Shown one piece after another: positions 3,771-60,904 of a stretch of DNA of 64,000 nt. The stretch is taken from positions 9,508 to 73,507 of the forward strand of contig JAFGML010000021.1 in the NCBI GenBank assembly GCA_016927555.1. Reading direction: 5' to 3'. Origin of the DNA: Thermoplasmatota archaeon (GTDB lineage: Archaea; Thermoplasmatota; E2; DHVEG-1). The notes under the pieces were generated by a model. That model was not told the DNA's origin and searched no databases. It saw nothing but the letters and a program-made list of their open reading frames with translations. Position numbers and translations under genes: made by a program. Numbering within the stretch: position 1 is the stretch's first letter; each line of letters opens with the position of its first letter.

Positions 3771-3834
3771 TTTTTCAATGTGACATTTTCACACCGTACT
3801 TTTAAATAGATTTATATGAAAAATAGAAGCATTT

Positions 3835-37767: not shown

Positions 37768-37812
37768 CTGAAGCACCGAAGCTTCTGTATTATCCTACGA
37801 TTCATAAGTATT

Positions 37813-37859
37813 TCTATAGGACTCTATATAGCCCATATGAATATATATACCTCTATAGA
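37813..37859. promoter_or_regulatory. Three TCTATA(G/T)A motif copies in the divergent phoU-abrB / pstS intergenic region
   Basis: TCTATAG at 37813, TCTATATA at 37823, TCTATAGA at 37852. Read directly. Confidence 0.5.
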
Positions 37860-37861
37860 CT

Positions 37862-38932: not shown

Positions 38933-38942
38933 AATCTGGATT

Positions 38943-40841: not shown

Positions 40842-40844
40842 TCC

Positions 40845-41699: not shown

Positions 41700-41709
41700 G
41701 TGAGAAGCT

Positions 41710-42360
41710 ATGGTTGAGAAGTTTCATGTGGAGTTAGAAGACCTCAAGCAAGATGTCGCGAAAATGGCAGAACTTGCGATCTTTATGCTTTCGAACTCTG
41801 TAGACGCCTTCAAAAAACTTGATGTCGAGCAAGCAGATCTCGTCGACTCAAAAAAGAAGGAACTTGCTGAGATAAAAATCACCAATGAAGAGGAGGCATT
41901 GCAGTTAATCGCCTTATATCAGCCCATGGCTCGAGACATGCGGACGATTGCCAGCTGTTTGAAAATGATTACGGATCTCTATCGTATTGGGAGGTATGGA
42001 AAAGATATCGCGAAGGTTACTAGAGAGATTTACCCAGGACCCCATATTAAAAAAATCATTAGTCTGCCACATATGAACCAGCTCGTGTGTGGAATGATTA
42101 CTGATGCACTCACCGCGTTTCGCACAGGGAATCTCTCCCTGCTGAAAGATTTCACAGAACGAGATAATGATGTCGATGAGCTGCGCTATTCGATTTTCCG
42201 TGAGTGTATTTCCTACATGATGGAAGACCCAAAGAACATCACCATTTGTACTCATTACATCATGGTCGCCCGGTACTTGGAGCGTTGTGGTGACCATGCC
42301 TGCAACATGGCTGAAGAAGTGCATTACATCGTGACTGGAGAACGGATTGAGCTATCATGA
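41710..42360 (+). CDS. phoU: Phosphate signalling modulator PhoU
   Basis: 216 aa with two PhoU repeats (YRIGRYGKDIA and ERCGDHACNMAE). Sits directly after pstB. Confidence 0.85.
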   Translation: MVEKFHVELEDLKQDVAKMAELAIFMLSNSVDAFKKLDVEQADLVDSKKKELAEIKITNEEEALQLIALYQPMARDMRTIASCLKMITDLYRIGRYGKDIAKVTREIYPGPHIKKIISLPHMNQLVCGMITDALTAFRTGNLSLLKDFTERDNDVDELRYSIFRECISYMMEDPKNITICTHYIMVARYLERCGDHACNMAEEVHYIVTGERIELS

Positions 42361-42845
42361 AGCAGACCGTCTTGTTTATTTGCTACCATAATTCTGCTCG
42401 GTCTCAGATGGCAGAAGCATTCCTCAAGACATTGTATCAAAATCGATTTGAGGCAGCTAGTGCCGGAGTAGAACCGACGCAGGTAAATCCCTATGCTATC
42501 GATGTGATGAAAGAAGTTGGTATCGATCTTTCTTCGTATCGATCAAAGAGTATCGAGGAGTTCCGAGGACAGGTATTTGATTACGTGGTGACAGTGTGTG
42601 ACCAAGCTCAGGAGAAGTGTCCGTTTTTTCCTGGGAAAACAGTACTGCACCAAGGGTTCCGTGATCCTGCAGTTGTTCAGGGTCCTTTCGAAGAAACCAT
42701 GACAGTCTTTCAGCAGGTCCGCGATGAAATACAAACATGGATTACCAAGACATTTGGAGCTGATGATGTACACTCCCAAGTACAAGAATTTACTGTTGAA
42801 GTTTCAGCATGGAAAAAATCATCTGCTTTAGGTGAGAATCAGTGA
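42357..42845 (+). CDS. arsC: Arsenate reductase / low-molecular-weight phosphotyrosine phosphatase family (thioredoxin-coupled ArsC type)
   Basis: CX5R P-loop VLFICYHNSARSQMAE plus the downstream Cys pair VCDQAQEKCPFFPG. Its ATG overlaps the phoU stop (ATGA). Confidence 0.75.
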   Translation: MKQTVLFICYHNSARSQMAEAFLKTLYQNRFEAASAGVEPTQVNPYAIDVMKEVGIDLSSYRSKSIEEFRGQVFDYVVTVCDQAQEKCPFFPGKTVLHQGFRDPAVVQGPFEETMTVFQQVRDEIQTWITKTFGADDVHSQVQEFTVEVSAWKKSSALGENQ

Positions 42846-42903
42846 ATAGATCTAAGCATGAAAACTGGTGTTTTTTTCCGCTGATGAGCAGTAAGTATAT
42901 AGG

Positions 42904-42969
42904 TCTATATAGAAAATGGAGTTTATATTGATAATTTATTTATGTATAGAGAAAATAAAGATGTATAGA
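42904..42969. promoter_or_regulatory. TCTATATAGA palindrome plus two TATAGA half-sites upstream of AbrB-PhoU copy 2
   Basis: 10-bp perfect palindrome at 42904-42913. TATAGA at 42955-42960 and 42964-42969. Confidence 0.5.
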
Positions 42970-43096
42970 CGAACTAGTCCTAACTCAAGGAACTGGAGCG
43001 AGTACCTGTGGGGGACGTGGTCTCTCCAGCAAAAGACTTGACTGAGAGAAGCAGAGAATAGGCATGCGCAACTGCATGCGATTAGGGGAACTACAT

Positions 43097-44107
43097 ATGG
43101 AAACTCGTAAAGTGCAAATAACAGGCAAATCAACATATATTATTTCACTTCCTAAAACATGGGTCAACAAGGTAAAAATACGCAATGGTAACAGTGTTAT
43201 TTTGATACCACGCTCTGATGGAACATTACTGATTAATCCAAAACTCAATGAGACAAAAGAGGTATCCAGCAACGCTATCGCGGTAGACACCCTCGATATG
43301 GAAACCTTGTTTAGGAAGTTCATCGGGGCGTACCTCGCTGGCTTTGACGTCATTGAAATCAACAGCTCTGAGAAGATGTCCCCGGCGGTTCGTCAGCAGA
43401 TTCGTCGGATGACTCAAAGCGTCATTGGCCCTGAAATTATCGATGAAACCAGTACCTCAGTGAAGATACAAGATCTGCTGGATTCAAGCGACCTGTCCAT
43501 GATCCAGGGGCTGAAACGGATGTACGTGATCACCCGCGGGATGCATCGGGATGCAGTCATCGCTTTGGAGCAACGAGATACGGAGCTTGCGGAGGATGTT
43601 GAATCCAGGGACAATGAAGTCGACAAGTTTTACTGGATGATCGCCAAGCAGTATAATCTCGTCCTTAATGATATGTTTTATGCAGATAAAATGAATGTGA
43701 AACCTCAAGAGGTGCTAGGCTACCTGTTGGTTGCGCGTTCTATTGAGCGTATTGCAGATCATGCGAAACGACTCGCAAGCAACGTACAACTCTTGAAGGG
43801 GAAAATCGATATTCTGCCTAGGATATTAGAGGCGAGCGATGCGATTTTAAAGGAGTTTGACGAGGCGGTGAACGCGTTTCATCGAAATAAATTTGAGCAT
43901 GCCAACCAGGTCGTCATCAAGGCACGGTCTCTTGGAAAGCTCACCCAGCAGTTGACGCAGGAGATTTTAGGATTAAAACTAGATGCGGCGACAATAGTCT
44001 CCCTGGCGTATATCGTGGATAGTCTTGAGCGGACGCGGGCGTACGTGCTCGATATCGCGGAGACTGCGATTAACCATCAGTTTACGACAGCGATGGTAAC
44101 CACTTAA
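43097..44107 (+). CDS. AbrB/SpoVT-domain + tandem PhoU-domain regulator (copy 2)
   Basis: METRKVQITGKSTYIISLPKTWVNKV plus two PhoU repeats (ERIADHAKRLA, ERTRAYVLDIAE). ATG 43097 follows TAGGGGAA. Confidence 0.75.
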   Translation: METRKVQITGKSTYIISLPKTWVNKVKIRNGNSVILIPRSDGTLLINPKLNETKEVSSNAIAVDTLDMETLFRKFIGAYLAGFDVIEINSSEKMSPAVRQQIRRMTQSVIGPEIIDETSTSVKIQDLLDSSDLSMIQGLKRMYVITRGMHRDAVIALEQRDTELAEDVESRDNEVDKFYWMIAKQYNLVLNDMFYADKMNVKPQEVLGYLLVARSIERIADHAKRLASNVQLLKGKIDILPRILEASDAILKEFDEAVNAFHRNKFEHANQVVIKARSLGKLTQQLTQEILGLKLDAATIVSLAYIVDSLERTRAYVLDIAETAINHQFTTAMVTT

Positions 44108-46349: not shown

Positions 46350-49300
46350 TTAGTGTTTCATCATGCGGGAGGCACGATAGCTTACTAATCGCGCAATAGC
46401 ATTCAGAGCAAGTATCATGATAATTAGGATAAAAGCCACAGCATATATTTTTTCGTATAATGTAGGCCATTGAGCACTAACACTATAAAAAAGATAAATC
46501 ATGTTTGACATTGATGCTGTGGGCTGGAAAATCGATGTTGCGACATGTGCAGAATATCCTGCGGTGAACATGACTGCAGCTGTTTCCCCAATTGCTCGTC
46601 CCATCGAAATGATCGCACCACTTGTAATTCCTGGAGCCGCTGGAGGAAGAATAACTGTTCGAATCGTTTGCCATTTTGTTGCACCAAGAGCAAGTGCTCC
46701 TTCTTGAAATTCCCGAGGGATTGATTTAATTGATTCTATAGAACTTCGAAGCAGAAGAGGTATTACCATTATCCCAAGGGTGAGTCCTCCAGCAATCATT
46801 GATATCTTAAACTCAAGGAAAATCACAAAGAACATAAAACCAAATGCACCAAAGACAATGGATGGTGTACTTGCTAAAGTGTCTGAGGCAAAGAGAATGA
46901 TTTTCGTGATGATATTGTCTTTCTTGATATATTCTTGAATGTAAATCGCGGCACCAATGGACAGTGGAGCAGCAAATGCAAGGGCTATAGCAACAAGTTG
47001 GAGGGAACCTGTGATTGCATTAGCAAAACCTCCCCCTAAACCGCCCATTTCTTCTTTTTGAAAGAGATACTCGGGTTTTAATGCTAATCCACCCTTGACA
47101 ATAATATCCTGGATTATCGCAACAAGAAATAAAGTGACAGTTATTGCACAAAGAAAAAGAATGATTTTTATGATTTTTTCTGATTGAAGCGCTTTTTTTG
47201 TTGAAAATGTACGAATGAGATCTTTAAATTGACTTCTAGATGACTCATATGTAGCGTCTTCAGAGGTTTTTTTATGGGTAGAATCAATGATTACGAAATT
47301 TTTTGAAATTTTATCAGACACTATCTTAAATTTTTTTGCTGATGAAAGAGCTTGGATATTTTGTGTGTTTTTCATGAGTTTGTTTGATTTTTCTTTTTTT
47401 CGTTGCTTGAGTTTTTCTTTAAGGAATAAAAAAATACGATGACTATAGTTATGCTTGTTTTTTCTATGAATAGATAAGATGAGAACATTAAGTATGAAGA
47501 TAAGGAAAAAGAGGACAATTCCTATCGCAAAGAGAGCATGCCGTATTTGGTCGTATGAGTACCCCCAACCAAGTGTTGCCGCGATAACGGAAGTCATCGT
47601 GCCACCTGAATCAAATAGAGAACTTGGTATTTGATAAAAAGCACCCATAATCATGAGAACCGCCATGGTTTCTCCAATCGCTCTGCCAGTTGCAAGAATA
47701 ATCGACGTGATGATGCCGGATTTTGCCTCAGGTAATATGATATGTTTTACGGTCTGCCAGCGTGTCGTGCCTAAAGCAAGTGATCCTTCTTTGAGGTCTT
47801 TTCTGACAACATGAATAGCGTCTTCGGAGAGTGTAATAATAATCGGAAGTATCATGATACCAAGAACGATTGAGGCGGTTAGAACATCATTTCCTATGCG
47901 TGTTGTTGTTTTAAAAAACCAGATGTATTCACCTAGTGTGCTGGTTATGAGCGGATAAAGAGAGTGTGCAAGAAACGGTCCGAAGGTAAAAAAACCCCAA
48001 AGACCAAAAATAACTGAGGGGATTCCTGCAAGAAGCTCGTAGAGAGGCTTTAAAATCATTCTTATTTTTCTTGGGCAGAACTCAGATAGAAAGATAGCGC
48101 ATCCTAAGCCAAGAGGAGCAGCAATAAAGATTGCAATAGTTGTGGTAAGCAATGTTCCTACGATGAATGGTAATATTCCAAATGTTGGTTGTGTTTTTTC
48201 AAGTTCGATGAGTAACTCGGTTTCAAGTGTCTCATCTTGAGTTGATTCTGGGGATTCGACGATAAACGTGAGGTGTAGGGTATCGGTTGATTGATTACCA
48301 ATGTTTATTGTTCCATCACCGATTAGTAACATTGTTCCGTTTTGAAGAAGAGTTGTTTTCCAGGTATCTCTACTGCTGGTTACGGTGAATGTCGCAAATC
48401 GTTGCACCTCATTGAGCGTTATTGTGTAGTTAACTGATGAACCAGCGATGATGTTTAATCTGTCCGTATCTACTTTGATTAAATTTTGGTTTTTGAAATG
48501 AAATAGTATGTGTGATGTGTCTGTTACTTGAGGATGGTTTGTCGAATTTATCGTTACTAGTATGTCATAGACTCCATCTTGAAAACTGACGAGTCGCGGG
48601 TTGACTGTCAGATTGAGTGATGCACCTGCTTCAAGAGTAATTTGTGCTGATGATGAGTTGTAATTCCAGTTCTCAGTGAGTTCTGCTATAGATGGACGGA
48701 AATAGTCCGGAGCATGAAGGGTGATGGTGTAGGTGTCTGAATACTCTCCAGTATTTTTCAGCTGCAGGAATGCTAGTTGAAATCCTAGTTCGTCTCCTGT
48801 GGCGACGAGGCTGATTTGACTTGGAGAGAGATCAACTCGATACTCAGAGGCGGTGATTTGTAACGGGATAATTTTATTATAAGATGAGGATTGTGAGGTT
48901 ACTGTTATTGATCCTTGATAAATATTCTCACCAGCGGGTATGAAGACACTAAGGTTCATTACCACGGTGTCATTGGGTATAAGAGCAATTGGTGAGTGCG
49001 GCGCAAGAGAATAGCTTAGGTTTTGTTCAAATTGTATATCTATGGCTATGTCATCAGTGGTTCCTCCTCGATTACTGATTGTAAATGGGATGGTCACCCA
49101 AGCATCAGGGGCAGCGAAAAGGGAGGTATCCTCTAGGTGTATGTGAAGGTCGTAGGCAACAATATGGGTGATCAGTGTTGTTGATTCTGTTTTTCCTAGG
49201 CTATATGATGGTTGCCATTGTGTCCCGGTGATAAATTCAGCGGGCCCGGTTGTATCGTAGAAAGCAGGCATGCCTTCGCGTACAATAAAAAGAACGATTA

Positions 49301-49718
49301 AAAAAACTGCTAAGGTTGTTGAAAGTGAAAGCAGGAAAAGTAATTTTTTTATGATGCGTTCTTGAAAGATCAGATAGCAAAGGATGAGCGCCTCGATGCT
49401 GATGAAAGTAACAATCAACGTGCCTAAAGCTATTGGAGAGGGGGTATAGCCTTGGAATAGGTTTTGTGGATGAAAAAGTATTTGTTCAAGAACGAAAAGA
49501 AAAATTTGGAATTGGAAAAGCAAAAAGAATAGCTTTATTTTTTTTTTGTAAAAAAACATGATAATTAATCCGATTTCTGTGAGCATGATAAGTAGGATGA
49601 ACATGGGATTCATGACAAATATGTTTGGCAAAAATATTATTATTAAAAAAAGAATATTTATGATAAACAGTATCCATTTTGATTGTAGTATCTCTGTAAA
49701 ACCCATTGCATCTGTCAA
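46350..49718 (-). CDS. Giant fused PstC-PstA phosphate permease (set 2) with an extra N-terminal TM bundle and a ~340-aa insertion in the first extracytoplasmic loop
   Basis: 1122 aa. The PstC landmark FITGTQWQP is separated from QPTFGILPFIVGTLL by residues ~171-509 (nt 48192-49208), versus only a few residues in set 1. EAA loops KEGSLALGTTRWQT and QEGALALGATKWQT. A Lys-rich linker joins the halves. Confidence 0.8.
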   Translation of the reverse strand: MTDAMGFTEILQSKWILFIINILFLIIIFLPNIFVMNPMFILLIMLTEIGLIIMFFYKKKIKLFFLLFQFQIFLFVLEQILFHPQNLFQGYTPSPIALGTLIVTFISIEALILCYLIFQERIIKKLLFLLSLSTTLAVFLIVLFIVREGMPAFYDTTGPAEFITGTQWQPSYSLGKTESTTLITHIVAYDLHIHLEDTSLFAAPDAWVTIPFTISNRGGTTDDIAIDIQFEQNLSYSLAPHSPIALIPNDTVVMNLSVFIPAGENIYQGSITVTSQSSSYNKIIPLQITASEYRVDLSPSQISLVATGDELGFQLAFLQLKNTGEYSDTYTITLHAPDYFRPSIAELTENWNYNSSSAQITLEAGASLNLTVNPRLVSFQDGVYDILVTINSTNHPQVTDTSHILFHFKNQNLIKVDTDRLNIIAGSSVNYTITLNEVQRFATFTVTSSRDTWKTTLLQNGTMLLIGDGTINIGNQSTDTLHLTFIVESPESTQDETLETELLIELEKTQPTFGILPFIVGTLLTTTIAIFIAAPLGLGCAIFLSEFCPRKIRMILKPLYELLAGIPSVIFGLWGFFTFGPFLAHSLYPLITSTLGEYIWFFKTTTRIGNDVLTASIVLGIMILPIIITLSEDAIHVVRKDLKEGSLALGTTRWQTVKHIILPEAKSGIITSIILATGRAIGETMAVLMIMGAFYQIPSSLFDSGGTMTSVIAATLGWGYSYDQIRHALFAIGIVLFFLIFILNVLILSIHRKNKHNYSHRIFLFLKEKLKQRKKEKSNKLMKNTQNIQALSSAKKFKIVSDKISKNFVIIDSTHKKTSEDATYESSRSQFKDLIRTFSTKKALQSEKIIKIILFLCAITVTLFLVAIIQDIIVKGGLALKPEYLFQKEEMGGLGGGFANAITGSLQLVAIALAFAAPLSIGAAIYIQEYIKKDNIITKIILFASDTLASTPSIVFGAFGFMFFVIFLEFKISMIAGGLTLGIMVIPLLLRSSIESIKSIPREFQEGALALGATKWQTIRTVILPPAAPGITSGAIISMGRAIGETAAVMFTAGYSAHVATSIFQPTASMSNMIYLFYSVSAQWPTLYEKIYAVAFILIIMILALNAIARLVSYRASRMMKH

Positions 49719-49896: not shown

Positions 49897-51039
49897 TTAG
49901 TAGAGGCTAATGTATCCGCTTTGTTCGCAGATTTTTTTGTTCATCTCTGGGCCAAGGACAAAGTCGATGTAGACTTTTGCGTCGCCTTTTGGTTTTCCAA
50001 CGGTGACATACAAGAGTTCTCGGGCACCATCATAGAAGGTTGTTACACCAGAGCGAATGTTTTTTGCAAAATTAGTGTCGTTTGGGTCTATTAGGGTTTT
50101 AACTGTTCGTCCAGCATAGGGTATCATCGTCACAAGGCCAGTTGAGGTGGCAACAGCACCATACGAGATGAAACCAAGAGCATCTGCATCCTTTGATATC
50201 GCCTGTATAAGCTCAGCGTTACCAGTTGCATGGATGGCAGCGATGCCTCGTGATTCAAGATCGACTTTTCCTTCGTTGATCATAGAACAGAAGGTTTCCT
50301 CTGTACCTGAGACTTCAGATCGGTCATAAATCTTTACTTCTTCACTACCTGTGCAGTTATCAAACATATCGGTACGTATATTTTTTGTTGGAACTTCATC
50401 CCATGAAATATACCCATTTGCGTCGCGATCTCTAACACCATCGGTCTGATTACTCTTCCAATTTGTTGATAATTGGTCCCATGTTGCAGTTCCTTCTCTC
50501 CCGTTATATGCATAGACATCTCGAACAGTCATAGCATGGATGCTTGTTAACCCGTGAGTATTTGCATATGGGACAGCAATAACTACTGCATCATATGCAA
50601 TCAGTGTGGTAAAAAGATCGATACCAATATCTTTCTTGCCATCGCGATTCAAATCAGGTAACGAAGTCATTTTTGCTTCTACATCTGACCTGGATGATGC
50701 ACTACCAATATCAATGGTTCCATATCCAACTGCAGTGACTCCTGCACCGGTTCCACCCTGTTGGAAAGAAATCTTATAGTTTGGGTTCTGTGCTTCGAAA
50801 AACTGTGCAGCAACAGCTGTGAACGGATATACAGTTGTACTTCCACCAATAGTCATTGCTGCTTGTAACTCACCAGCACCACCGGTTTTTGTTTGAACGT
50901 CACTCTGCCAGCCGCTCTGCCAGACATAGAACGCCCCAGCTGATCCAACAGCAACGAGGACCAACATAAGGGTGGCTATGATTGGTGAGACCGCCTGGGC
51001 GTTCTTCACTAGCCTTTTTCCTATTGTTTTTGTGTTCAT
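49897..51039 (-). CDS. pstS: PstS-family phosphate-binding protein (set 2) with a class III (type IV pilin-like) signal peptide
   Basis: ATG 51039 lies 6 nt after TGGAGGCA. N-terminus MNTKTIGKRLVKNAQAVSPIIATLMLVLVAVGSAGAF. PstS blocks GGSTTVYPF and GGTGAGV...TIDIGSASS. EF-hand-like loops DLNRDGKKD and DRDANGYISWDE. Confidence 0.8.
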   Translation of the reverse strand: MNTKTIGKRLVKNAQAVSPIIATLMLVLVAVGSAGAFYVWQSGWQSDVQTKTGGAGELQAAMTIGGSTTVYPFTAVAAQFFEAQNPNYKISFQQGGTGAGVTAVGYGTIDIGSASSRSDVEAKMTSLPDLNRDGKKDIGIDLFTTLIAYDAVVIAVPYANTHGLTSIHAMTVRDVYAYNGREGTATWDQLSTNWKSNQTDGVRDRDANGYISWDEVPTKNIRTDMFDNCTGSEEVKIYDRSEVSGTEETFCSMINEGKVDLESRGIAAIHATGNAELIQAISKDADALGFISYGAVATSTGLVTMIPYAGRTVKTLIDPNDTNFAKNIRSGVTTFYDGARELLYVTVGKPKGDAKVYIDFVLGPEMNKKICEQSGYISLY

Positions 51040-51294
51040 TTTTTTTGCCTCCAAATATTTTTCTACTTTGGATTGCATCCCCCAACACCGTCAGGTTCAC
51101 GAAATCCAAACCACATGCAGTATTTTTCTGCACTTACTTTGCGCCAACGAACCGGTTTTTTAATAAGCTTATTCAAATAAAAAAAATAGAATGAGTAGAT
51201 GACACGACTACCACTCACGGCTACATACAAAAACTGGAACTATATAGGGTATAGTGTCTCTATACAACATCTTTTTAACACACAGTTTTCATAG

Positions 51295-53091
51295 ATGGTT
51301 CCAGAGCAACAAAAGGAGGCATTCTGTATTCCACGCTTTGAACATCTCAGCAATCTCTTCAAGAAAAAAGACGACTCTGAGCAACAAATCACCCGACTGC
51401 TTGATACCAAATACCGAGATCTTCTGAAAAAGAAAGCTGAGTCACTCGAACAACACTTCCTCCCAAAAGAAGAAATCTCAGAAAAAATCATTCAACAAGA
51501 AGAAATCAGCTTCATGAGAAGAGAATTCGAACGAAACAAAAGCACCGTCAACATCACGTATCCTGTCAACCCACCCTTCGCTTTTGTGAACATCCTCTTC
51601 AACGAACAAGCTGGGGAATTCCACTACCTGCTCAAAGAACCAAAACTCAAAGAAGCTGAGGTACACCACCTTGACCTCATCAAACAAAAAATAGAGGCAA
51701 CCATGGATGAAGAAGACCTTCCCATCGACGAGGAAGGAACCTTCACTGTCTCAAAGGAACTCAAAGCATACCTACAGAAACGATTCCTCGATGTCATCGA
51801 CTTGTACGACATTGCTGTTGATGAGAAACGACGACCCATTCTCTTGTATTACCTACAGAAAGACCTCCTTGGACTTGGTAGAAGCGACGCAGTCATCAAA
51901 GACCTGTTCGTCGAAGACATCGGCTGCAATGGGCCAAAAACACCCCTCTACCTGTACCATCGTGTGTTTGGCTCCATGAAGACCAACATCACCTACCCTA
52001 GTGAACTTGAACTGAACAAGTTCATCCTGAAGCTGGCGCAAACCTCTGGCAAACACATCAGCGTCTATCAACCAATCCTAGATGCAGTCCTTGCTGACGG
52101 CAGTAGAATCAACCTCACCTTAGGTTCTGAGGTCACAAGGAAAGGCTCGACGTTCACGATACGGAAATTCAGCTATGACCCGATCTCACCGATTGACTTG
52201 CTCAGGTTCGGCTCAATCTCCACCCTGCAGCTGGCGTACTTCTGGCAGCTCATCGAACATAAGAAATCCATTCTGATGAGTGGGGGAACCGCTTCAGGGA
52301 AAACCACGCTGCTCAACGCCCTGTGCATGTTCATCAGACCAGAGGATAAAATCGTCTCCATAGAAGACACCCCAGAGATCCACATCGACCATCAGAACTG
52401 GATCCAATCAGTGGCACGAAAAGGATATGGGAAAATGATGGGGGTGTCTGGCATCTCAGGGATATCAGGAATCTCAGGAATCTCCTCCTCAAGCGGCGGG
52501 CCTGGGTCTATTGATATGTTTGATTTACTTGTCGCTGCCCTGCGTCAACGACCAGAGTACATCATCGTTGGGGAAATACGAGGCAGAGAAGCCTTCACCC
52601 TCTTCCAAGCCATCGCCGTTGGCCACTCCTCAATGAGCACGGTGCATGCTGGGTCTATCGAAGAACTCCTCCACCGGGTGGAAAACGAACCGATGAACAT
52701 CCCCCGTGTTTTGTTCCAAAGCATTGACGCGGTCGCCTTCCAAGGACAAGTCATCGCCAACGGCAAACGCGTCAGACGAGTCAAAAACATAGTGGAAGTC
52801 CTTGAAATCGACCCTGATACCAACAACCTGCTCACGAACACCGCGTTCCACTGGAACCCCAAGGGTGACTTCTTCCACTACAACGGCAGAAGCTTCATTG
52901 TGGAAAAAATCGCTCGAGACACAGGGAAAGACTCCGATAAAATCATGGAGGAGCTCACCAGAAAAGAACACTACCTGCAACTCATGAACAAGAAAAACCT
53001 GACGTACTACAAAGACGTCAGCAAAGCCATCAACATGTACTATGTCGACCCACTGAAAGCAACCATGGACCTTGAAGCAACCCTGAGGTAA
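51295..53091 (+). CDS. FlaI/ArlI-PilB-type secretion ATPase (type IV filament assembly)
   Basis: Walker A SGGTASGKTTLLNAL, Asp box IVSIEDTPEI, Walker B/His box RQRPEYIIVGEIRGREA...GHSSMSTVHA. Unusual GVS(GIS)4SSSGGPGS insert. Confidence 0.85.
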   Translation: MVPEQQKEAFCIPRFEHLSNLFKKKDDSEQQITRLLDTKYRDLLKKKAESLEQHFLPKEEISEKIIQQEEISFMRREFERNKSTVNITYPVNPPFAFVNILFNEQAGEFHYLLKEPKLKEAEVHHLDLIKQKIEATMDEEDLPIDEEGTFTVSKELKAYLQKRFLDVIDLYDIAVDEKRRPILLYYLQKDLLGLGRSDAVIKDLFVEDIGCNGPKTPLYLYHRVFGSMKTNITYPSELELNKFILKLAQTSGKHISVYQPILDAVLADGSRINLTLGSEVTRKGSTFTIRKFSYDPISPIDLLRFGSISTLQLAYFWQLIEHKKSILMSGGTASGKTTLLNALCMFIRPEDKIVSIEDTPEIHIDHQNWIQSVARKGYGKMMGVSGISGISGISGISSSSGGPGSIDMFDLLVAALRQRPEYIIVGEIRGREAFTLFQAIAVGHSSMSTVHAGSIEELLHRVENEPMNIPRVLFQSIDAVAFQGQVIANGKRVRRVKNIVEVLEIDPDTNNLLTNTAFHWNPKGDFFHYNGRSFIVEKIARDTGKDSDKIMEELTRKEHYLQLMNKKNLTYYKDVSKAINMYYVDPLKATMDLEATLR

Positions 53092-53097
53092 CCACTG

Positions 53098-54027
53098 ATG
53101 AAACAACGCCGTACGAAGAAAGAGCCTTCTTTGAAAAAACCAGTCAGTGCACTCCTCGTGGAACGCTACAAAGCGTTCAGCTACCGTCTCTTCGGCAAAC
53201 ACGTGTTCACTACAGAGAAGACTGGGGCATTGTCTGAAAAACTCAAAATGGCAAACATGCGTTACACACCATCGGTATTCTACTCAACACTGCTGACCAC
53301 AGGCATACTCATCACAGTTCTTTCACTCATCGTCTTCAGCTTCCTGTTTCATTTTCTCCTAACGATAGACATGTGGCTTTTGTACTCCCTTGCGCTAACC
53401 GCGGTGACTACGACAGTAACCCTTGGGATGTTCTTCTTCGTCATGAACTCGAAAATCTCCTCACGGAAATCGCAAATCGACCACGAACTGCCCTTCGTCC
53501 TCAGCGAGCTGTCCATTCTCGCAAGCACGGGGCTGACCCCCATTAAAATCATGCGGCACATGGCACAGCGTCACGGTAACCCAGCGATGACCTCAGAATT
53601 CAGAAAAATCATATCAAAAATCGACGTGGAAGGAAAAGACATCATCACCGCGATGAGTGAAACCGCAAAGGAAACACCCTCGCCACTGTTCCGGGAGACA
53701 CTCTGGGACCTCTGCAACATGATTCACCAGGGAGGAGACCTGGATGCATACCTACGTTCAAAGGCAGACATCACCCTGCAGCTGAAGCGAGATATCCAAA
53801 AAGAATTCATAGAGAAACTGGCGACCTACTCCGAGATGTACTCAAGCTTGGTCCTCATCGGCGTACTGTTTCTTGGGATTGCAGCATTCTTGCTTGATGC
53901 GATGCAATCCACAATAGGACCACTCACCGCTGACTCCTTACTGCTCATGCTCTCATACTTAATCATACCTGCGGTCATCATTGGTGTGAATGCTATCGTC
54001 TCTCTGGCGTATGCGAAGAGCGGGTGA
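53098..54027 (+). CDS. Type IV filament platform protein, half-size (single T2SSF domain; FlaJ/TadB-like)
   Basis: One T2SSF-type cytoplasmic domain (ELPFVLSELSILASTGLTPIKIM...GGDLDAYL) flanked by TM segments. Confidence 0.7.
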   Translation: MKQRRTKKEPSLKKPVSALLVERYKAFSYRLFGKHVFTTEKTGALSEKLKMANMRYTPSVFYSTLLTTGILITVLSLIVFSFLFHFLLTIDMWLLYSLALTAVTTTVTLGMFFFVMNSKISSRKSQIDHELPFVLSELSILASTGLTPIKIMRHMAQRHGNPAMTSEFRKIISKIDVEGKDIITAMSETAKETPSPLFRETLWDLCNMIHQGGDLDAYLRSKADITLQLKRDIQKEFIEKLATYSEMYSSLVLIGVLFLGIAAFLLDAMQSTIGPLTADSLLLMLSYLIIPAVIIGVNAIVSLAYAKSG

Positions 54028-54034
54028 GTAAACG

Positions 54035-55432
54035 TTGCGCTTTCACACCATCTCCTTGAGTGTAGCATTCTTCCTTCTCCTCTGTCTTCCCTCCAGCATC
54101 ACCGCACAAGAAGATACCACTCCACCAGTGATTATTAGTGTTTCCCCTGCCGAGGCCACAACCATAGGTAACCAAACACCACAAATCATGGTTCAGTACG
54201 CAGATGAATCAGACATCGACCTGAGCACTGTTAGAATCATCGTCGATCAAATAGATGTCACAGAGTGGGAGGAAACCTCGATAACAGACACCTCTGTTTT
54301 GTATAAGGTTCCGCAGATCCTCAGACTCCAAGACGGTAATCATTCCGTGTTTATTGAGGTGGCAGATACACAAGGGAACCGTGCGACAAAAACCTGGGTG
54401 TTTCTCGTTGACACAACACAACCAACACTCCAAGGAGAAAGCCTGGACCTCTTCACCATCGTCACCTTTTTCATCTACGGAGCACTCATCAGCGCAGTCC
54501 TCTTCATTTTTTATATTTTATACCTGAGGAAAACACGGAGGTTCACGTTCAGAAAGTTCTTTGCACAACATCCCATACAAAAAGAAATCATCACCCTCTA
54601 CATTCCCCTCATCCTTGGTTTTTTTATCATCCTCTTTGGTCTTGCTTGGACCTCAAGAAACCTGCCTGACATCCCGTTTTCCCCGGAGTACGTCTTTTCT
54701 GCCGGAGTGCTCATTGCCCTTGGACCATTCACACTATCATCGATAGCTGAAAAACGCACTATCAATCGGTACGAGCAAGCGTTCGCACAGTTTCTCTTTG
54801 AAATGGCAGATGCTATGCGCGGGGGTCTTGACCCCACCAAAGCACTCATTGAGCTTGCAAAGGGAAATCAAGGAATCCTCAGAGACCATCTGAAGAAAGC
54901 AGCGGAGAACATCAAACTCGGTCGACCCTTTGATGAGGTGATGCAAGCCATGGTCCGTCCTATTAAAAGTGATTTGGTGAAACGGTATGCGACTTTGATT
55001 GGTGACACCTCAAAAATCGGTGGGGAAACCTCACTGGTCATTTACAGAACCGCAAAGGATATGGATGACTTTATCAAAATCAACCAGGAGCGCAGACGGC
55101 AGCTCACCGCTCAGGTCACCACGATTTACATCGCCTTTGCCGTCTTACTTGTCATCCTGTATCAGTTGATCACGATGTTTCCTTCAATGGGGTCATTGAA
55201 CCTCTCTTTGCTTGGTGCCACTGATTTGGATTCCACAGAGACAAGCTCATCGATCATCCGCATGAGTAGTGAAACCATGAAACGCAGGTTCCTTCATCTC
55301 ATGATGATTAACTCCCTGGGCACAGGGACGCTCATGGGGATGCTTGTTGATGGAAAAATCAAATACGGGCTTATTCATTCACTCGTCCTGATTAGTATAT
55401 CAGTGGTGTTCTTCGCACTTCTCATCCTTTAA
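54035..55432 (+). CDS. Type IV filament platform protein, half-size (T2SSF domain) with a Sec-type signal and an N-terminal Ig-like ectodomain
   Basis: TTG start 7 nt after GGGTGA. Signal LSVAFFLLLCLPSSITAQ. A ~110-aa beta-rich domain (PPVIISVSP...TWVFLVDTTQPT), TM segments, then a T2SSF block (FEMADAMRGGLDPTKALIELA...GRPFDEVM). Confidence 0.7.
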   Translation: MRFHTISLSVAFFLLLCLPSSITAQEDTTPPVIISVSPAEATTIGNQTPQIMVQYADESDIDLSTVRIIVDQIDVTEWEETSITDTSVLYKVPQILRLQDGNHSVFIEVADTQGNRATKTWVFLVDTTQPTLQGESLDLFTIVTFFIYGALISAVLFIFYILYLRKTRRFTFRKFFAQHPIQKEIITLYIPLILGFFIILFGLAWTSRNLPDIPFSPEYVFSAGVLIALGPFTLSSIAEKRTINRYEQAFAQFLFEMADAMRGGLDPTKALIELAKGNQGILRDHLKKAAENIKLGRPFDEVMQAMVRPIKSDLVKRYATLIGDTSKIGGETSLVIYRTAKDMDDFIKINQERRRQLTAQVTTIYIAFAVLLVILYQLITMFPSMGSLNLSLLGATDLDSTETSSSIIRMSSETMKRRFLHLMMINSLGTGTLMGMLVDGKIKYGLIHSLVLISISVVFFALLIL

Positions 55433-55476
55433 AAAAAAGTAAAAATGTACACAGAATTTTTTTTAAACCCAGGGTG

Positions 55477-56736
55477 TTACTCAGTGATTGCTCCTAGGAA
55501 ATCACAATAGGGGCAGCGAAGTATTCCCTCTGTATCATTGAGTGTTGTGGTAAAAGTCTTCTGACACATAGGGCAGGAGACTTCAACAGCAGGAGAGGGT
55601 AGCCGAATAGAGGTTACCTGTGCGTCCTTTGTATTTCTCACAGCTGAGGATTTTCTTGGTGAGGCCCGAGGTGCCTTGGTCTTTTGTGATGAAGTTTTTT
55701 TATGAGACATAGTAGTTTTTTGTGTATTTGAGGATGGTTCAGACGATGCTGTTGTCGTTATTTTCTGTATGGGTACACACACCAACTCAGGAGCCACAGC
55801 ATCCTCCGGAATAGTGATTTTCTGTTCTTTTACCATGGAGAGGACTTCACCAACGACGACTTCATCAATCATGATGGAACGCTTCTTTGCAGCGTAATCA
55901 ATGACAACATCAGCAAGCTTGAGGAGATGACGAGGGTTGCCAGCCACATCTAAATTGAGAAAAGCGACGCCCTCGGGGGTGAACGGGTACAAAGGGTCCA
56001 CATCATCAACGAGTCGTTTCTCTAAGAGTCTTTTGGCAATCATCAACTGTGCTTCTTCATCGCTGAGCGGTGGGATTTGGATTTTTCGGTTTATCCGTTC
56101 ATGCAGGGATTTGTGCTGCTCCATGAGTGATTCGAAATACTGCTGATCACTGCTGATCATAATCATCACGCCTTGGTCAATGTGGTCAATCATGACGTGC
56201 AGTGTGTGTAAGAACCGCTCAGCATCCTCCACCCGTGCAAGGTGATGAAAATCATTTATTAACAGAAACGAAGGGGCATTATTGTTTAAAGCATCAGCGA
56301 TGATTCTACCGGCTTTATCAGGATCGTACTGCTTCTCTGCTTTCTTAAGTTTCTTTTTAACCGACTTGTACCACTTCGGAGCAGAGAACAGACGAGTGAA
56401 GAAACCAAGGTGGCTTTGAAGAAGGAGTAGATGCAGGATGCCTTCGACGACCCAGCGGGTCTCAAAAGTCATGTTCTGAAACACATAGAACGCGTTGTTG
56501 CGTTTTGCTTCATTTGCCACCAGCAGCAGTCGCTCGGTTTTCCCAGCACCAAGCCCACCAAGCACTGCAACAACCGCTTTGTTTTCCTTGTAGAATACTT
56601 CCTCGCGCATTCGAGCTAAATCTTCATCAACCCGCTGAACGACATGGAAGATGTCAACGTTCTCCAAACTCTCACTGGAGAGATCTCGGAACGGATTGCT
56701 ACTTAACCCATAGCGTTCATATCCTGTTTTCTGCAT
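55477..56736 (-). CDS. ExeA/AAA_22-like P-loop ATPase with a disordered Ser/Thr/Lys-rich linker and a C-terminal zinc ribbon
   Basis: YGLSSNPF N-terminus, Walker A GGLGAGKTERL, Walker B-like LLINDFHH, C-terminal CPMCQ...CPYCD. Confidence 0.6.
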   Translation of the reverse strand: MQKTGYERYGLSSNPFRDLSSESLENVDIFHVVQRVDEDLARMREEVFYKENKAVVAVLGGLGAGKTERLLLVANEAKRNNAFYVFQNMTFETRWVVEGILHLLLLQSHLGFFTRLFSAPKWYKSVKKKLKKAEKQYDPDKAGRIIADALNNNAPSFLLINDFHHLARVEDAERFLHTLHVMIDHIDQGVMIMISSDQQYFESLMEQHKSLHERINRKIQIPPLSDEEAQLMIAKRLLEKRLVDDVDPLYPFTPEGVAFLNLDVAGNPRHLLKLADVVIDYAAKKRSIMIDEVVVGEVLSMVKEQKITIPEDAVAPELVCVPIQKITTTASSEPSSNTQKTTMSHKKTSSQKTKAPRASPRKSSAVRNTKDAQVTSIRLPSPAVEVSCPMCQKTFTTTLNDTEGILRCPYCDFLGAITE

Positions 56737-56752
56737 AGTGCTTGTTCACTTC

Positions 56753-57367
56753 CTACGTGACCCGTGCGCGAAGATCGATGCTGATCTTTTTGCCATCAAA
56801 GGTGTAGTAAATATTATCATTGAAGGAATCACGGTTCATCCATTTGGAAATCCGAATATACCGTGCGATTCCCTTTGTCGTCTCTTTGGATAAAAAATGA
56901 ATAATACCATCAGCAAGGTGACCTATGGTGATCTGGACTTTCTCATCAAGCATCCCGTACTCCAGTGAGAGCAGGAGAATGGTGTTGTGTTGTTTGCACA
57001 GACTATCCAGCTCCTCAACAATGGTTCGGACTTCTGATAAGGTCTTGTCAAGAACCAAATAGGAAAACGAGTCGATGATAAGCACCGCATCTCTCCTGAT
57101 GAAATCCTTCCAGTGGCGATGGGAACGCTCTTCAACAATTTGACACTTGGTTGAATCGGTGTACTGCGACAGTTCAGCGACAACCTCTTCTTTTGCCCGC
57201 GAGGCGATGTACACAACCTCTTTTTTGTGTTTCACGGCAAGCCCTGCTACAGTTTGAATAAAGATCGTCTTAATGGGGTCAATCGTGCCTTGGACGACAA
57301 CAATGTTCCCATTTGGGATTTCTTGTATGAATTCGTTTAATCCAGCTATGTGAATAGGAATCCCCAT
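56753..57367 (-). CDS. KaiC/RecA-superfamily FlaH(ArlH)-like protein with a degenerate Walker A
   Basis: GLNEFIQEIPNGNIVVVQGTIDPIKTIF (GxxGxGKT degraded to GTIDPIKT) and a VLIIDSFS Walker B-like strand. ATG 57367 preferred over the longer track ORF. Confidence 0.55.
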   Translation of the reverse strand: MGIPIHIAGLNEFIQEIPNGNIVVVQGTIDPIKTIFIQTVAGLAVKHKKEVVYIASRAKEEVVAELSQYTDSTKCQIVEERSHRHWKDFIRRDAVLIIDSFSYLVLDKTLSEVRTIVEELDSLCKQHNTILLLSLEYGMLDEKVQITIGHLADGIIHFLSKETTKGIARYIRISKWMNRDSFNDNIYYTFDGKKISIDLRARVT

Positions 57368-57452
57368 AGGAGCCAATATCCTCTTTTTTATTATCGCTAA
57401 GAATACTATATTTCTTAAAGATATTGAACATAATCTATGGACCGCCTTAGTT

Positions 57453-57462
57453 TCTATATAGA
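57453..57462. promoter_or_regulatory. TCTATATAGA palindrome in the divergent flaH-like / pilin-like intergenic region
   Basis: The same perfect 10-bp palindrome as at 42904. A further TATAGA at 57483-57488. Confidence 0.5.
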
Positions 57463-57529
57463 CATACATACCATGCATACATTATAGACATCATTTTTAA
57501 GATACGGAAAAAAGTACGTAAATCTACCT

Positions 57530-58423
57530 ATGAGAAAGTGTACTTACGAGGAGCAAGCAGTCTCTATTATCATTGGAGCGTTAATGCTTACCGTCATTGT
57601 CGTGTCAGCAGCAACAGCGTTTGCAGTGTTCACCAGTCAAAAACAAAAGGAGCTGCAGGAAGCACAGTACGCCTCCTTACAACGAGATCTCGAACAGCTA
57701 GCCATTACAAGGATCTCCACCATCCACTACAACAGCTCAAATCATTTAGAAAACATTAGTTGTAGCATCGTCAGTCTCCACGCAGATGACTCACGCATTA
57801 TTTCAATGAGTCTGAACGGCAATTACCTCAGGTATTTTCACCTCACCAGGCAAGACTACACACTAGAAGAGTGGAAAATCAATTCAACAACAGGTGAATA
57901 TGTCTTACAGAGTGTAACAGACAGTCAGGGTGCCGTGATCTATAATGGAAGCACAAGTTTTAACACATCGAATGAAAAATATTCATACTACCCCTTGACA
58001 GTGTTATCTCGAGAACGAGTGCTTCTTACTATAGACAATGCATCGAGCACAAGTGTATTCCTTATTCGGCATATTCTTAGCAATGATGCAATTACTTTGT
58101 CGGTGTACACAAGTTTAACCAATGAGTTTTCAAAGACGTTCTATCCACCGACAGCAATCATCCGTCTCATTACTGAGTCACAGTGGAATAGCACAAGTAA
58201 TGACTATGAATCAGTCATCATCTTGGATGGCTCCCTCTCAGATCATCCTTCACTAGATGCCTACATTGTATCATGGATATGGACAGTCGATGGAAATCCA
58301 CTGAGCACATCGGGAAGAAAAATCCGTGCACCAGATAGCCTTCTCATAGGGAACCATAACATCACCTTGAGTGTCACTGATAATTTTGGCATGAACAGCA
58401 CCAGCACAATCACATACCCCTAG
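57530..58423 (+). CDS. Type IV pilin-like protein (class III signal peptide) with a C-terminal PKD-like domain
   Basis: N-terminus [34 protein letters not shown] (archaeal pilin N-domain type). Many N-x-S/T sequons. C-terminus [10 protein letters not shown]...[12 protein letters not shown] (PKD-like). Confidence 0.7.
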
Positions 58424-58439: not shown

Positions 58440-59207
58440 ATGGCACTGAAGAAAAAACCTAAAATCACCATCAACAATCTGAATCTGTGGTATGGCGACA
58501 AACAAGCACTCATCAATGTTTCGATACAGATACCGGAACATAAAATAACCGCACTCATCGGCCCCTCCGGATGCGGAAAATCCACACTCATCCGCTGCTT
58601 AAACCGTATGAATGACACCATCGATACCTGTAAGACAAGAGGTGAAGTACATCTTGATGGACACAATATCTACGCTGATGATGCAAACGTCGTGGCAATA
58701 CGTAGAAAAATCGGCATGGTGTTCCAGAAACCAAACCCCTTCCCAAAAAGTGTGTACGACAACATCGCATATGGACCGAAAATGCAAGGAATTAAAGACA
58801 AAAAAATTCTTGACCCGCTGGTCGAACAAACCCTGAGGAAAGCAGCGCTTTGGCAGGAAGTTGTTGATCGATTACATGAATCAGCTATGGGATTGTCGGG
58901 AGGTCAACAGCAGCGACTCTGCATCGCACGTGCCTTAGCTATTGAACCGGAGGTCATCCTCATGGATGAGCCCTGCTCCGCCCTTGACCCCATAGCGACT
59001 GCAAAAATAGAGGACCTCATGGTAGAGCTAAAAAAAGATTACACGGTCGTCATCGTCACTCATAACATGCAGCAGGCAGCACGCATTAGCGATTACGCTG
59101 CGTACATGTACCTCGGCAAGATGATCGAATTTTCATCAACAAAACAACTCTTTGAAAACCCTAAAGAAGAACTCACCCAGAACTATATCACCGGGAGATT
59201 TGGATAA
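58440..59207 (+). CDS. pstB: Phosphate ABC transporter ATP-binding protein PstB (set 2)
   Basis: Walker [10 protein letters not shown], signature [15 protein letters not shown]-terminus YITGRFG. Very similar at protein level to PstB at 40845, but with many synonymous differences. Confidence 0.9.
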
Positions 59208-59211
59208 CACG

Positions 59212-59928
59212 ATGCAGAATTCTGCTTCTCCCCAGTACTTCACTCTCTCTGAGAAAGGGACAAAACGTTCGAGGAATGAGGATTGCTTTCTTGTGGAAAC
59301 CCACCAAAATCACTACTTGTGTGCAGTCGCTGACGGCGTTGGTGGTCTGCAGAATGGTCATGTTGCAAGCAGTCATGCAATCTCAGAACTACGACAATTG
59401 TTTAGAGGACGACAGATGGGTCTGAAGGACTGTTTTCACCTCATCAACACATCGTTAGTACGAGAGAACCAGAAGCATTCACAGACCAGCGCAACCACAC
59501 TAACCTCGGTACTCATCAACGTAGAAACCATGGAAGCAATGATAGCCCACGTCGGAGATAGCAGAGCGTACGTCATCACTGAAACACTATGGAGAACACA
59601 CGACCATAGCTTGGTTGAGCAGCTCGTTGATCTCGGTGTGATTACTGAGGAGGCAGCATTTACTCATCCCGAAAAGCATAGGATTACACAAGCACTAGGA
59701 ATCAATACAAGTATTGGTGTTGAGGTGAATTACCAAGGACTCAAGAACGCGATCTTGTTACTCTGTTCAGATGGGCTACATAATTTTGTTCGTGACAGAG
59801 ACATTGCTACCATCGCTCGAGAGCATGACCCACAAACAGCCTGTATACGATTAATGGAAATTGCGCGAACACAGGGGAGTAATGATGACATCACAATCAT
59901 ATTTTTCAAGATAGGAGATGAAAGGTAA
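59212..59928 (+). CDS. PP2C-family Ser/Thr protein phosphatase
   Basis: RSRNEDCF, AVADGVGG, LLLCSDGL and GSNDDITII motifs. ATG 59212 lies 5 nt after the pstB2 stop. Confidence 0.8.
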   Translation: MQNSASPQYFTLSEKGTKRSRNEDCFLVETHQNHYLCAVADGVGGLQNGHVASSHAISELRQLFRGRQMGLKDCFHLINTSLVRENQKHSQTSATTLTSVLINVETMEAMIAHVGDSRAYVITETLWRTHDHSLVEQLVDLGVITEEAAFTHPEKHRITQALGINTSIGVEVNYQGLKNAILLLCSDGLHNFVRDRDIATIAREHDPQTACIRLMEIARTQGSNDDITIIFFKIGDER

Positions 59929-60130: not shown

Positions 60131-60904
60131 TTATACTTTGTTTTTTTCAGGTTCGTAGTACCGATTCTGACAGCATCCATCAGTGAGAGAAAACTCCACC
60201 ATGGTCTTCATCTCCCCGGTTCGCACATTCATCACTTGTACTTTAATCTGGTGGTCGTCGATGTCAATGACATTAAACGTGTTGCCGAAATGCGCCCGGG
60301 TGCGGTTACAGGAAAACGTGCCTGCGTTGACCAAGAGTGTCTTATGGATTTTCACGGCCCAGGGGACATGACGATGACCCATCAACACGAGTGGGACTTC
60401 TTTGCGTAGAATCAAATCCAGGGTTTCCCCAGCATCCTCAATAATGTTGGTTTCTCGCCCTGAGCCAGGTACCGGAACCAGATGATGATGGAACCCCACT
60501 ATCGTAAGTTTCCCTGCAGTAACACATTCTTCGATCTTTCGATACCGCCCTCGTCCTAGACGCCCGTCGTCCTTGTCAGGCTCGCTGGATGCTAGACCAA
60601 TCAATGTCACCTGTGGTAATGTATGAACAAAATCAGTTTCACCGAAAAACTCAGGAAACAACTTGAACCCCAGGTTCCGCTCATCATGGTTCCCCGGCAC
60701 CACAAATAACCGACTTGTGATTTCCTGGGTTTTCTTGGCTGCTAGCTCGTATTCGGACAACAGTCCATCCGTGGTGAGATCACCAGAGACAAACACAAAA
60801 TCACAGTGAAGGCCGTTAAGCATCCCAACTGCCTTGTCAAAAATCTTTGGGTTGAAATCCGTCCCTTGCGTAGAATGAATATCAGAGATATGACCAATTC
60901 TCAT
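60131..60904 (-). CDS. Calcineurin-like metallophosphoesterase
   Basis: MRIGHISDIHS, SGDLT, GNHD, GFHHH and GHRH motifs. Confidence 0.8.
   Translation of the reverse strand: MRIGHISDIHSTQGTDFNPKIFDKAVGMLNGLHCDFVFVSGDLTTDGLLSEYELAAKKTQEITSRLFVVPGNHDERNLGFKLFPEFFGETDFVHTLPQVTLIGLASSEPDKDDGRLGRGRYRKIEECVTAGKLTIVGFHHHLVPVPGSGRETNIIEDAGETLDLILRKEVPLVLMGHRHVPWAVKIHKTLLVNAGTFSCNRTRAHFGNTFNVIDIDDHQIKVQVMNVRTGEMKTMVEFSLTDGCCQNRYYEPEKNKV

Follow-up and report, generated by a model that had tools for sequence, protein, structure and literature searches.

Gene organization of the locus

We analyzed a 64,000-nt stretch of DNA (the window) from contig JAFGML010000021.1 of a Thermoplasmatota archaeon (assembly GCA_016927555.1, 85% complete, hereafter G000), in which the genes of a type IV filament (T4F) machine are interleaved with those of a complete Pst phosphate transporter, the second one in the window. 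Coordinates are positions in the window, and proteins were assigned by Pfam and NCBIfam profile scans with the cut-offs of these models (Table 1). The five genes on which the original prediction was built, namely a secretion ATPase, two platform halves, a KaiC/FlaH-like protein and an AAA protein, were all recovered with their coordinates and motifs in an open reading frame (ORF) check, and their assignment to a T4F system was supported by T2SSE and T2SSF matches above the Pfam cut-offs. That prediction had overlooked the pilin-like gene and the flanking pstCA, pstS and pstB genes.

The ATPase gene and the two platform genes are separated by spacers of 6 and 7 nt and form a tight operon on the plus strand, with Shine-Dalgarno-like GAGG and GGGTGA sequences directly 5′ of the gene starts of this operon. 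The pstS gene is divergent, and the region between them is a probable shared control region. A promoter and terminator scan, which relies on a bacterial consensus, did no better for promoters than shuffled sequences and was set aside. On the other side of the locus, pstB starts 17 nt 3′ of the pilin-like gene. The PP2C phosphatase gene is loosely associated, being conserved in the close relatives L022 and L027 only.

Table 1 Features of the T4F/pst locus
Feature	Position	Strand	Evidence or remark
pstC-pstA fusion permease, 1122 aa, large extracytoplasmic insertion	46350..49718	-	Two BPD_transp_1 stretches; downstream of pstS
Pilin-type PstS	49897..51039	-	Class III signal peptide and pilin-like helix, then PBP_like_2 phosphate-binding domain
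AT-rich intergenic region between divergent pstS and ATPase operon	51040..51294	.	
FlaI/PilB-family secretion ATPase, 598 aa	51295..53091	+	T2SSE 113.9 bits
Platform half 1 (TadC/PilC-like), 309 aa	53098..54027	+	One T2SSF domain, PF00482 51.2 bits
Platform half 2, 465 aa, TTG start: Sec signal, Ig-like ectodomain, transmembrane helices, T2SSF	54035..55432	+	PF00482 46.9 bits
AAA+ ATPase, AAA_22/ExeA-ORC type, 419 aa	55477..56736	-	Alignment, model, AAA_22 in family members
Single-domain KaiC/RecA-like protein	56753..57367	-	PF06745 37.7 bits
Pilin-like protein, candidate filament subunit	57530..58423	+	Class III signal, beta-rich PKD-like C-terminus
pstB, ATPase of ATP-binding cassette (ABC) transporter	58440..59207	+	ABC_tran 109 bits
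PP2C-type phosphatase, overlaps pstB end	59152..59928	+	PP2C 48 bits

A conserved module fixed beside a pilin-type PstS

The PstS encoded next to the ATPase operon matched PF12849 (64 bits) and TIGR02136 (107 bits), and its residues 28–69 gave a weak match to UpsA. At its N-terminus (KNAQ↓AVSPIIATLMLVLVAVGSAGAFYVW), a class III (pilin-type) signal precedes a helix. This signal (KNAQ↓AVSPIIATLMLVLVAV), a bindosome feature with a predicted cleavage site, is kept in the orthologues, and the pattern [KR]-[AG]↓[VI]SP[VI][VI]ATL was found in every PstS orthologue with a recovered N-terminus. The PstS of the canonical pstS-pstCA-pstB-phoU operon of the window (37862–42360) is a lipoprotein with an LLAGC lipobox and is therefore anchored otherwise than the pilin-type PstS. 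The pstB of the locus is 73% identical to the pstB of this canonical operon.

The pilin-like protein has an N-terminus with a class III signal (EEQ↓), many N-x-S/T sequons and a PKD-like, beta-rich C-terminus.

Conservation was then analyzed with one genome per species. The scan gave 73 loci that encode relatives of the ATPase (57–85% identity), nearly all of them in metagenome-assembled genomes of Thermoplasmata or Methanomassiliicoccales, and all locus proteins were mapped onto them. Almost everywhere the unit was the same, with pstS on one strand, the genes for the ATPase and platform halves 1 and 2 on the other, and genes for the pilin, the KaiC-like protein and the AAA protein. The two platform halves, like the KaiC-like and AAA proteins, occurred in all 51 loci with enough flank, and pilin orthologues, with RG↓LSEIVGTLMLVLIVV, in 45 of these 51. 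By a strict filter, a divergent pstS lay within 1.5 kb of the ATPase gene in 38 of 49 loci. Nine of the 11 failures arose artificially, through over-extended ORFs in high-GC loci or through the orientation of the locus, which brings the count to about 47 of 49, and the real exceptions are L038, with a PstS-like C-terminal fragment upstream, and L045. In about half of the loci with full flanks, the pstC/A and pstB genes were no more than 10 kb away, and the order of pilin followed by pstB recurs in L028, L029, L034 and L071. Among 61 relatives, strong full-length PstS matches were obtained only in genomes G022, G031 and G036, and just these three also gave a full match to the AAA gene; the remaining PstS matches were weak, partial and to ordinary proteins of about 300 aa. 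By these computations the genes form a conserved unit that is fixed beside a pilin-type PstS and Pst permease/ATPase genes and is distinct from the archaellum.

The permease gene is more variable. Giant PstCA orthologues (full-length, 1065–1089 aa) adjoin pstS in L028, L030, L035, L068, L073, L085 and L092, but the giant fusion is limited to the marine and Methanomassiliicoccales branches. In the soil Thermoplasmata branch, pstC and pstA are of ordinary size and sometimes about 9 kb off. In the window, a phosphate-acquisition island extends from about 36.7 to 61 kb.

Within this region, the canonical phosphate operon lies between two AbrB(SpoVT/MazE)-PhoU fusion regulators (36772–44107). It is made up of the lipoprotein PstS, a 632-aa PstCA fusion, PstB, PhoU and a low-molecular-weight phosphatase. 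A calcineurin-like phosphoesterase gene is found at 60131–60904.

The secretion ATPase forms a clade apart from ArlI

The ATPase scored 399 bits against the ArlI equivalog NF058587 (cut-off 550), and the other secretion ATPases of its own genome scored 403 and 419 bits. Against BasE (NF053672) the score was 184 bits (cut-off 1000). The best sequence match in PDB was Archaeoglobus afGspE (2OAP, 383 bits), while FlaI (4II7) gave 270 bits. For phylogenetic placement, a maximum-likelihood tree was used, which included 28 ArlI sequences of relatives, each above 650 bits. The pst-linked ATPases formed one clade (64 rows; Shimodaira–Hasegawa-like approximate likelihood ratio test, SH-aLRT, 99), to which neither the ArlI clade (SH-aLRT 100) nor the paralogues in G000 belong. 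Bona fide ArlI above the cut-off is present in 78 of 151 genomes of the same class, with 650–730 bits. The whole pst-linked clade is also marked by a Gly/Ser loop, (GxSG)n, at ATPase residues of about 382–405, between the Walker A region and the Asp box; in the alignment this loop is missing in ArlI and in the other secretion ATPases of the genome. At the DNA level (52440–52510), the loop is coded in part by a 9-bp tandem repeat.

The original prediction held that, if the ATPase clustered firmly with bona fide ArlI and the genome had no other arl locus, the genes would simply be a divergent archaellum operon. The ATPase falls in a separate clade, and in G022 the module, on contig C3, is accompanied by a canonical arl cluster on contig C1. 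This cluster encodes five archaellins, ArlF, ArlG, an ArlH whose GKEGAGKS is intact, two ArlI and an ArlJ that is a single chain of 595 aa. At the locus in the window, the Pfam and NCBIfam scans gave no match to ArlF/ArlG, archaellin, ArlCDE or ArlX among the encoded proteins, in agreement with the earlier statement that FlaC/D/E, FlaF/G and FlaX homologues are missing there. The two archaellin-family genes of the window lie 31 and 45 kb away (5751–6452 and 19197–19793), likewise as predicted (more than 30 kb), and another is on contig C18 of the genome. ArlI above the cut-off was not found in the 85%-complete assembly, though archaellin-family genes are present, so the arl core of this genome is either missing from the assembly or lost.

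In most genomes of this family, and in many of the class, we also saw two tandem bona fide ArlI genes (660–690 bits each) inside otherwise canonical arl operons, for example in L147 (G022:C1, 7424–10739). The T4F ATPase is stated to stay single-copy per subsystem (Sivabalasarma and Albers 2026, PMC13705601).

A split platform with an Ig-like ectodomain

Each platform half contains exactly one T2SSF domain above the Pfam cut-off. Half 1 aligned with positions 13–238 of the 555 positions of the ArlJ profile, and the two halves scored 65 and 36 bits against the ArlJ models, which have cut-offs of 400–570. In each of the 51 sufficiently flanked loci, half 1 had a gene of its own. The description of the platform as two half-size genes with one T2SSF domain each was thus right, but its unusual status was overstated, since all three T4F loci of the genome have two single-domain T2SSF genes. 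Two tadC genes together with KaiC-family partners are known in the euryarchaeal clade 1 and 2 systems (Makarova, Koonin and Albers 2016, PMC4858521), and two tadC genes also in subsystems 4A and 4B (PMC4858521, PMC13705601). The split platform as such is therefore not special.

What distinguishes this platform is the N-terminal part of half 2 (MRFHTISLSVAFFLLLCLPSSITAQ), for which a Sec-type signal and a beta-rich ectodomain had been predicted. The Sec-type signal is LSVAFFLLLCLPSSITAQ. In the AlphaFold model (mean predicted local distance difference test score, pLDDT, 84; 85–92 over residues 32–125), residues 32–125 form an all-beta sandwich that is followed by the first transmembrane helix, and the topology of the model places the T2SSF domain in the cytoplasm. 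Foldseek searches with the ectodomain returned Ig-like sandwiches, namely CopC/PcoC (target template modeling score, TM, 0.6–0.7), the PorU Ig domain, PKD and titin-type domains, and a Big_13 match was below the cut-off. The ectodomain (residues about 30–127) is kept in 34 of 34 aligned orthologues of half 2, with P38 invariant and P49, I51, G101, D111 and F123 nearly invariant. In the same genome, the second T2SSF gene of contig C26 has no such N-terminal domain, and the copy on C55 is truncated where the contig ends. The signal peptide and Ig ectodomain on half 2 are thus a distinctive feature, and apparently an undescribed one.

The KaiC-like and AAA proteins

The KaiC-like protein is encoded by an ORF at 56753–57478 on the minus strand, but its orthologues start at M38, which puts the gene start at 57367, the end coordinate given in the original prediction. 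Its match to PF06745 (cut-off 26.6) covers chiefly the C-terminal half, and against the ArlH equivalog it scored 32 bits (cut-off 215). The decay of its Walker A motif to GTIDPIKT, noticed at first in this one protein, is family-wide. In 56 orthologues the P-loop reads E-[GS]-G-A-D-x-A-K-S, so that Walker A has lost two of its three glycines, with Asp and Ala/Ile in their place, and the Walker B D-S is invariant.

The AAA protein gave no family above the Pfam or NCBIfam cut-offs, and its AAA_22 match (17.9 bits) was below the cut-off of 27. Its proposed ExeA-type nature was nevertheless supported by the family, in which AAA_22 (PF13401) was matched by 30 of 34 members at E values up to 0.01 (best 7e-8) and many members carry the Joint Genome Institute (JGI) label 'predicted ATPase ExeA'. 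Alignment of the core of about 310 aa showed invariant RxGLxxxPF (here RYGLSSNPF) and GxxGxGKT (here GGLGAGKT) motifs and a GNPR motif. Walker A is intact and Walker B is non-canonical (LLIND). The model (pLDDT 82.5) consists only of an AAA+ core and a zinc ribbon joined by a disordered linker; it lacks any long hydrophobic helix, membrane anchor or peptidoglycan-binding domain, and its top Foldseek matches were ORC/Cdc6, HslU and TnsC (TM 0.4–0.53); a PDB sequence search gave chance matches only. The Ser/Thr/Lys-rich linker (residues 314–379, low confidence in the model) and the C-terminal zinc ribbon (CPMC...CPYC), both part of the first description, are present in the protein of the window but in only 10 of the 34 aligned orthologues. 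We therefore rejected the zinc ribbon as a defining feature of the family and regard it as an accretion of one subclade.

From their AAA_22 P-loop and N-terminal GLxxxPF-type motif, and from the JGI naming by COG, we take the ExeA/GspA/MshM-type ATPases to resemble this protein. The ExeA-type AAA_22 protein is an accessory of the bacterial type II secretion system (T2SS) and of mannose-sensitive hemagglutinin (MSHA) systems. Compared with ExeA/GspA (COG3267), the AAA protein has no transmembrane segment and no peptidoglycan-binding domain, has the disordered linker and zinc ribbon (in the subclade only) and the Walker B LLIND, and its nearest folds, of ORC/Cdc6 type, reach TM values of only 0.4–0.5.

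Comparison with known systems

In the bindosome of Sulfolobales, a T4F ATPase and platform with pilin-like proteins serve ABC binding proteins with class III signals (PMC3047682, PMC13705601). Here too, a T4F machine and a pilin-like protein stand beside a binding protein whose signal is of class III. However, the low scores against BasE (184 bits, cut-off 1000) and BasF (NF053673, 35 bits, cut-off 1300) mean that there is no family-level homology, and the binder is a phosphate-binding PstS here but a sugar binder in Sulfolobales. In addition, the binder is encoded at the machine, across a divergent promoter region, with a single binder per machine; the platform is split and has an Ig ectodomain; KaiC-like and AAA_22 partners are added; and the lineage is Thermoplasmata. 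The module can thus be called bindosome-like, as a presumed analogue of the Sulfolobales bindosome of which it is not a member.

The euryarchaeal clade 1/2 pili (Methanococcus Epd and the Archaeoglobus afGspE 2OAP type; Makarova, Koonin and Albers 2016) are closer in composition, as they share two tadC-like genes, KaiC-family ATPases that are often in the operon and Ig-like, beta-rich pilins, and afGspE is the closest of the solved structures to the ATPase. They differ from the module in its fixed link to the pilin-type PstS and pst genes, the signal and Ig ectodomain on the second TadC, the AAA_22 protein and the Gly/Ser loop. None of these four features is mentioned in PMC4858521 or PMC13705601, and neither paper mentions phosphate or PstS. 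A full-text literature search likewise found no paper that joins PstS with class III signals in archaea, and the fixed PstS link, the Ig ectodomain of the second half and the AAA_22 partner are apparently undescribed.

With the archaellum core ArlH-ArlI-ArlJ, the module shares the same three superfamilies in the same roles (KaiC-like protein, secretion ATPase and T2SSF platform). Against this, its scores are under every equivalog cut-off, its platform is split, the KaiC-like P-loop is degenerate whereas ArlH of G022 keeps an intact one, and stator, archaellin, ArlCDE and ArlX are missing at the locus. The two separate single-T2SSF platform proteins also recall TadB/TadC of the bacterial Tad pilus, but here the lineage is archaeal, half 2 bears an Ig domain outside the cell and a Tad-type pilin set is missing.

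Proposed function of the module

The functional statements below are drawn from sequence, synteny, phyletic pattern and predicted structure. Because the linkage to the pilin-type PstS is conserved, it points to a bindosome-like role. The original prediction had left it unclear whether the machinery is an archaellum, a pilus or a bindosome system; the archaellum is out, and from the PstS linkage we read the rest as bindosome-like. On balance, the locus is probably a dedicated T4F assembly module that serves a pilin-type phosphate-binding protein, that is, a 'phosphate bindosome', and judged from its sequence the module most likely mounts the phosphate catcher PstS on the cell surface.

In such a system, a prepilin (class III) peptidase encoded elsewhere would cleave PstS and the pilin-like protein, and the hexameric ATPase, acting through a heterodimer of the platform halves (TadC1/TadC2), would pull their hydrophobic helices from the membrane. 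PstS and pilin-like subunits would be built into a short surface filament or pseudopilus, with PstS held above the envelope. There PstS would catch phosphate and pass it to the PstCA permease, possibly at the large ectodomain of the permease. The TadC2 Ig ectodomain would be a likely extracellular contact with PstS, the filament base or PstCA. By analogy with ArlH, the KaiC-like protein may sit under the ATPase where ArlH does and be a scaffold or switch without catalysis, and the AAA_22 protein, with its intact P-loop and non-canonical Walker B, may be a nucleotide-dependent regulator. A bolder version is more tentative, and we regard it as doubtful: PstS would be the polymerising or tip pilin and, where PstCA is giant, the TadC2 Ig domain would dock on the permease tower, to give one pilus-importer supercomplex that is gated by the dead KaiC-like protein and the AAA_22 protein according to phosphate status.

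Several points weigh against a phosphate bindosome. We infer the entry of PstS into a filament, and mere anchoring by its helix would be the alternative. The match of the pilin-like protein to Pilin_N (22.7 bits) is below the Pfam cut-off of 25.2. A profile search of the 85%-complete assembly did not find a prepilin peptidase (Peptidase_A24); since this gene occurs once each in eight of nine relatives tested, including the module carriers G022, G031 and G036, we read the gap as incompleteness of the assembly. Because the soil Thermoplasmata branch is without the large PstCA ectodomain, physical coupling of permease and platform cannot be general. The module is also patchy: of 401 genomes sampled from the phylum 13 have it, and within the same genus it occurs in one other genome only, as a fragment; it is therefore an accessory system.

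Alternatively, the genes could encode an ordinary adhesion pilus whose only tie to the phosphate genes is a shared location or regulation, for instance for attachment to phosphate-bearing particles, while PstS is anchored by its helix and not handled by the machine. Adhesion is generally the role of euryarchaeal type IV pili whose loci combine two tadC genes with KaiC-like partners and Ig-like pilins (PMC4858521), a pilin-like gene that encodes a PKD-like domain belongs to the locus itself, and the adjacency of pstC, pstA and pstB is not constant. But the adjacency of the pilin-type PstS has been held across 57–85% ATPase identity and several orders, PstS and module strictly co-occur in the 61 relatives, and the class III signal is on the module PstS and not on the canonical one, so that we think an adhesion pilus unlikely. 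A T2SS-like pseudopilus, which would push PstS or other cargo through the S-layer or release it rather than form a PstS-carrying filament, is in our view quite improbable. It would fit the single pilin-like gene, the ExeA-type AAA_22 protein (by the JGI naming and its accessory role in bacterial T2SS/MSHA systems) and the Ig ectodomain of the platform, which could be a cargo dock; however, the pilin-type helix on PstS itself speaks for a subunit-like substrate and not for folded cargo, and a secretin or other outer conduit is neither needed nor present in archaea. A divergent archaellum operon can be practically dismissed: ArlI, ArlJ and ArlH are the best NCBIfam matches of the ATPase, the platform halves and the KaiC-like protein, and archaellin-family genes are in the window, but this reading is refuted because module carriers such as G022 also hold a separate canonical arl operon and the ATPase clade lies apart from the bona fide ArlI of relatives (660–730 bits), and the scores are far under the cut-offs (399 vs 550, 65 vs 550 and 32 vs 215) in a locus without ArlF, ArlG and archaellin.

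If the module is a phosphate bindosome, its parts would bear on a wider question. The Sulfolobales bindosome is the only studied T4F machine for nutrient binders; little is understood of it, and the genes of its binders lie apart from those of the machine. Binding proteins with class III signals are widespread in archaea, with thousands in the survey of Sivabalasarma and Albers (2026), and have been proposed to functionalise T4F, but their link to a specific T4F locus still needs validation (PMC13705601). The module gives this link in a fixed genetic form, with one machine, one binder and one transporter in about 70 species-level genomes, and makes the idea of a 'functionalised pilus' directly testable. 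It would also carry the idea beyond sugars to phosphate, which in sediments and soils is a key limiting nutrient, and it defines a minimal parts list that includes two new accessories, the platform Ig ectodomain and the AAA_22 partner.

Other filament-related genes of the window and genome

Just downstream of the orphan archaellin-family gene at 5751–6452, the window (6802–9486) encodes a gingipain-type Peptidase_C25 of 894 aa that has a propeptide as well as Ig-like and PKD domains. The archaellin-family gene on contig C18 of G000 (2443–4161) encodes a 572-aa protein with an archaellin N-terminal domain and long Ser/Gly/Ala-rich repeats with a periodicity of about 45 residues; it is an orphan outside any arl operon.

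Two further contigs of G000 carry T4F genes. On contig C30 (58684–62286), two neighbouring genes encode secretion ATPases of 815 aa and at least 383 aa, the first with a 320-aa Pro/Lys-rich N-terminal extension and the second with an N-terminal CxxC...CxxC zinc ribbon. Contig C26 (1–14834) contains a further T4F locus, in which a split platform is followed by a 675-aa secreted protein and then by a 3158-aa surface protein. The N-terminus of the 675-aa protein, DDTTPPVISNITYEP, resembles the start of the TadC2 Ig ectodomain, QEDTTPPVIISVSP.

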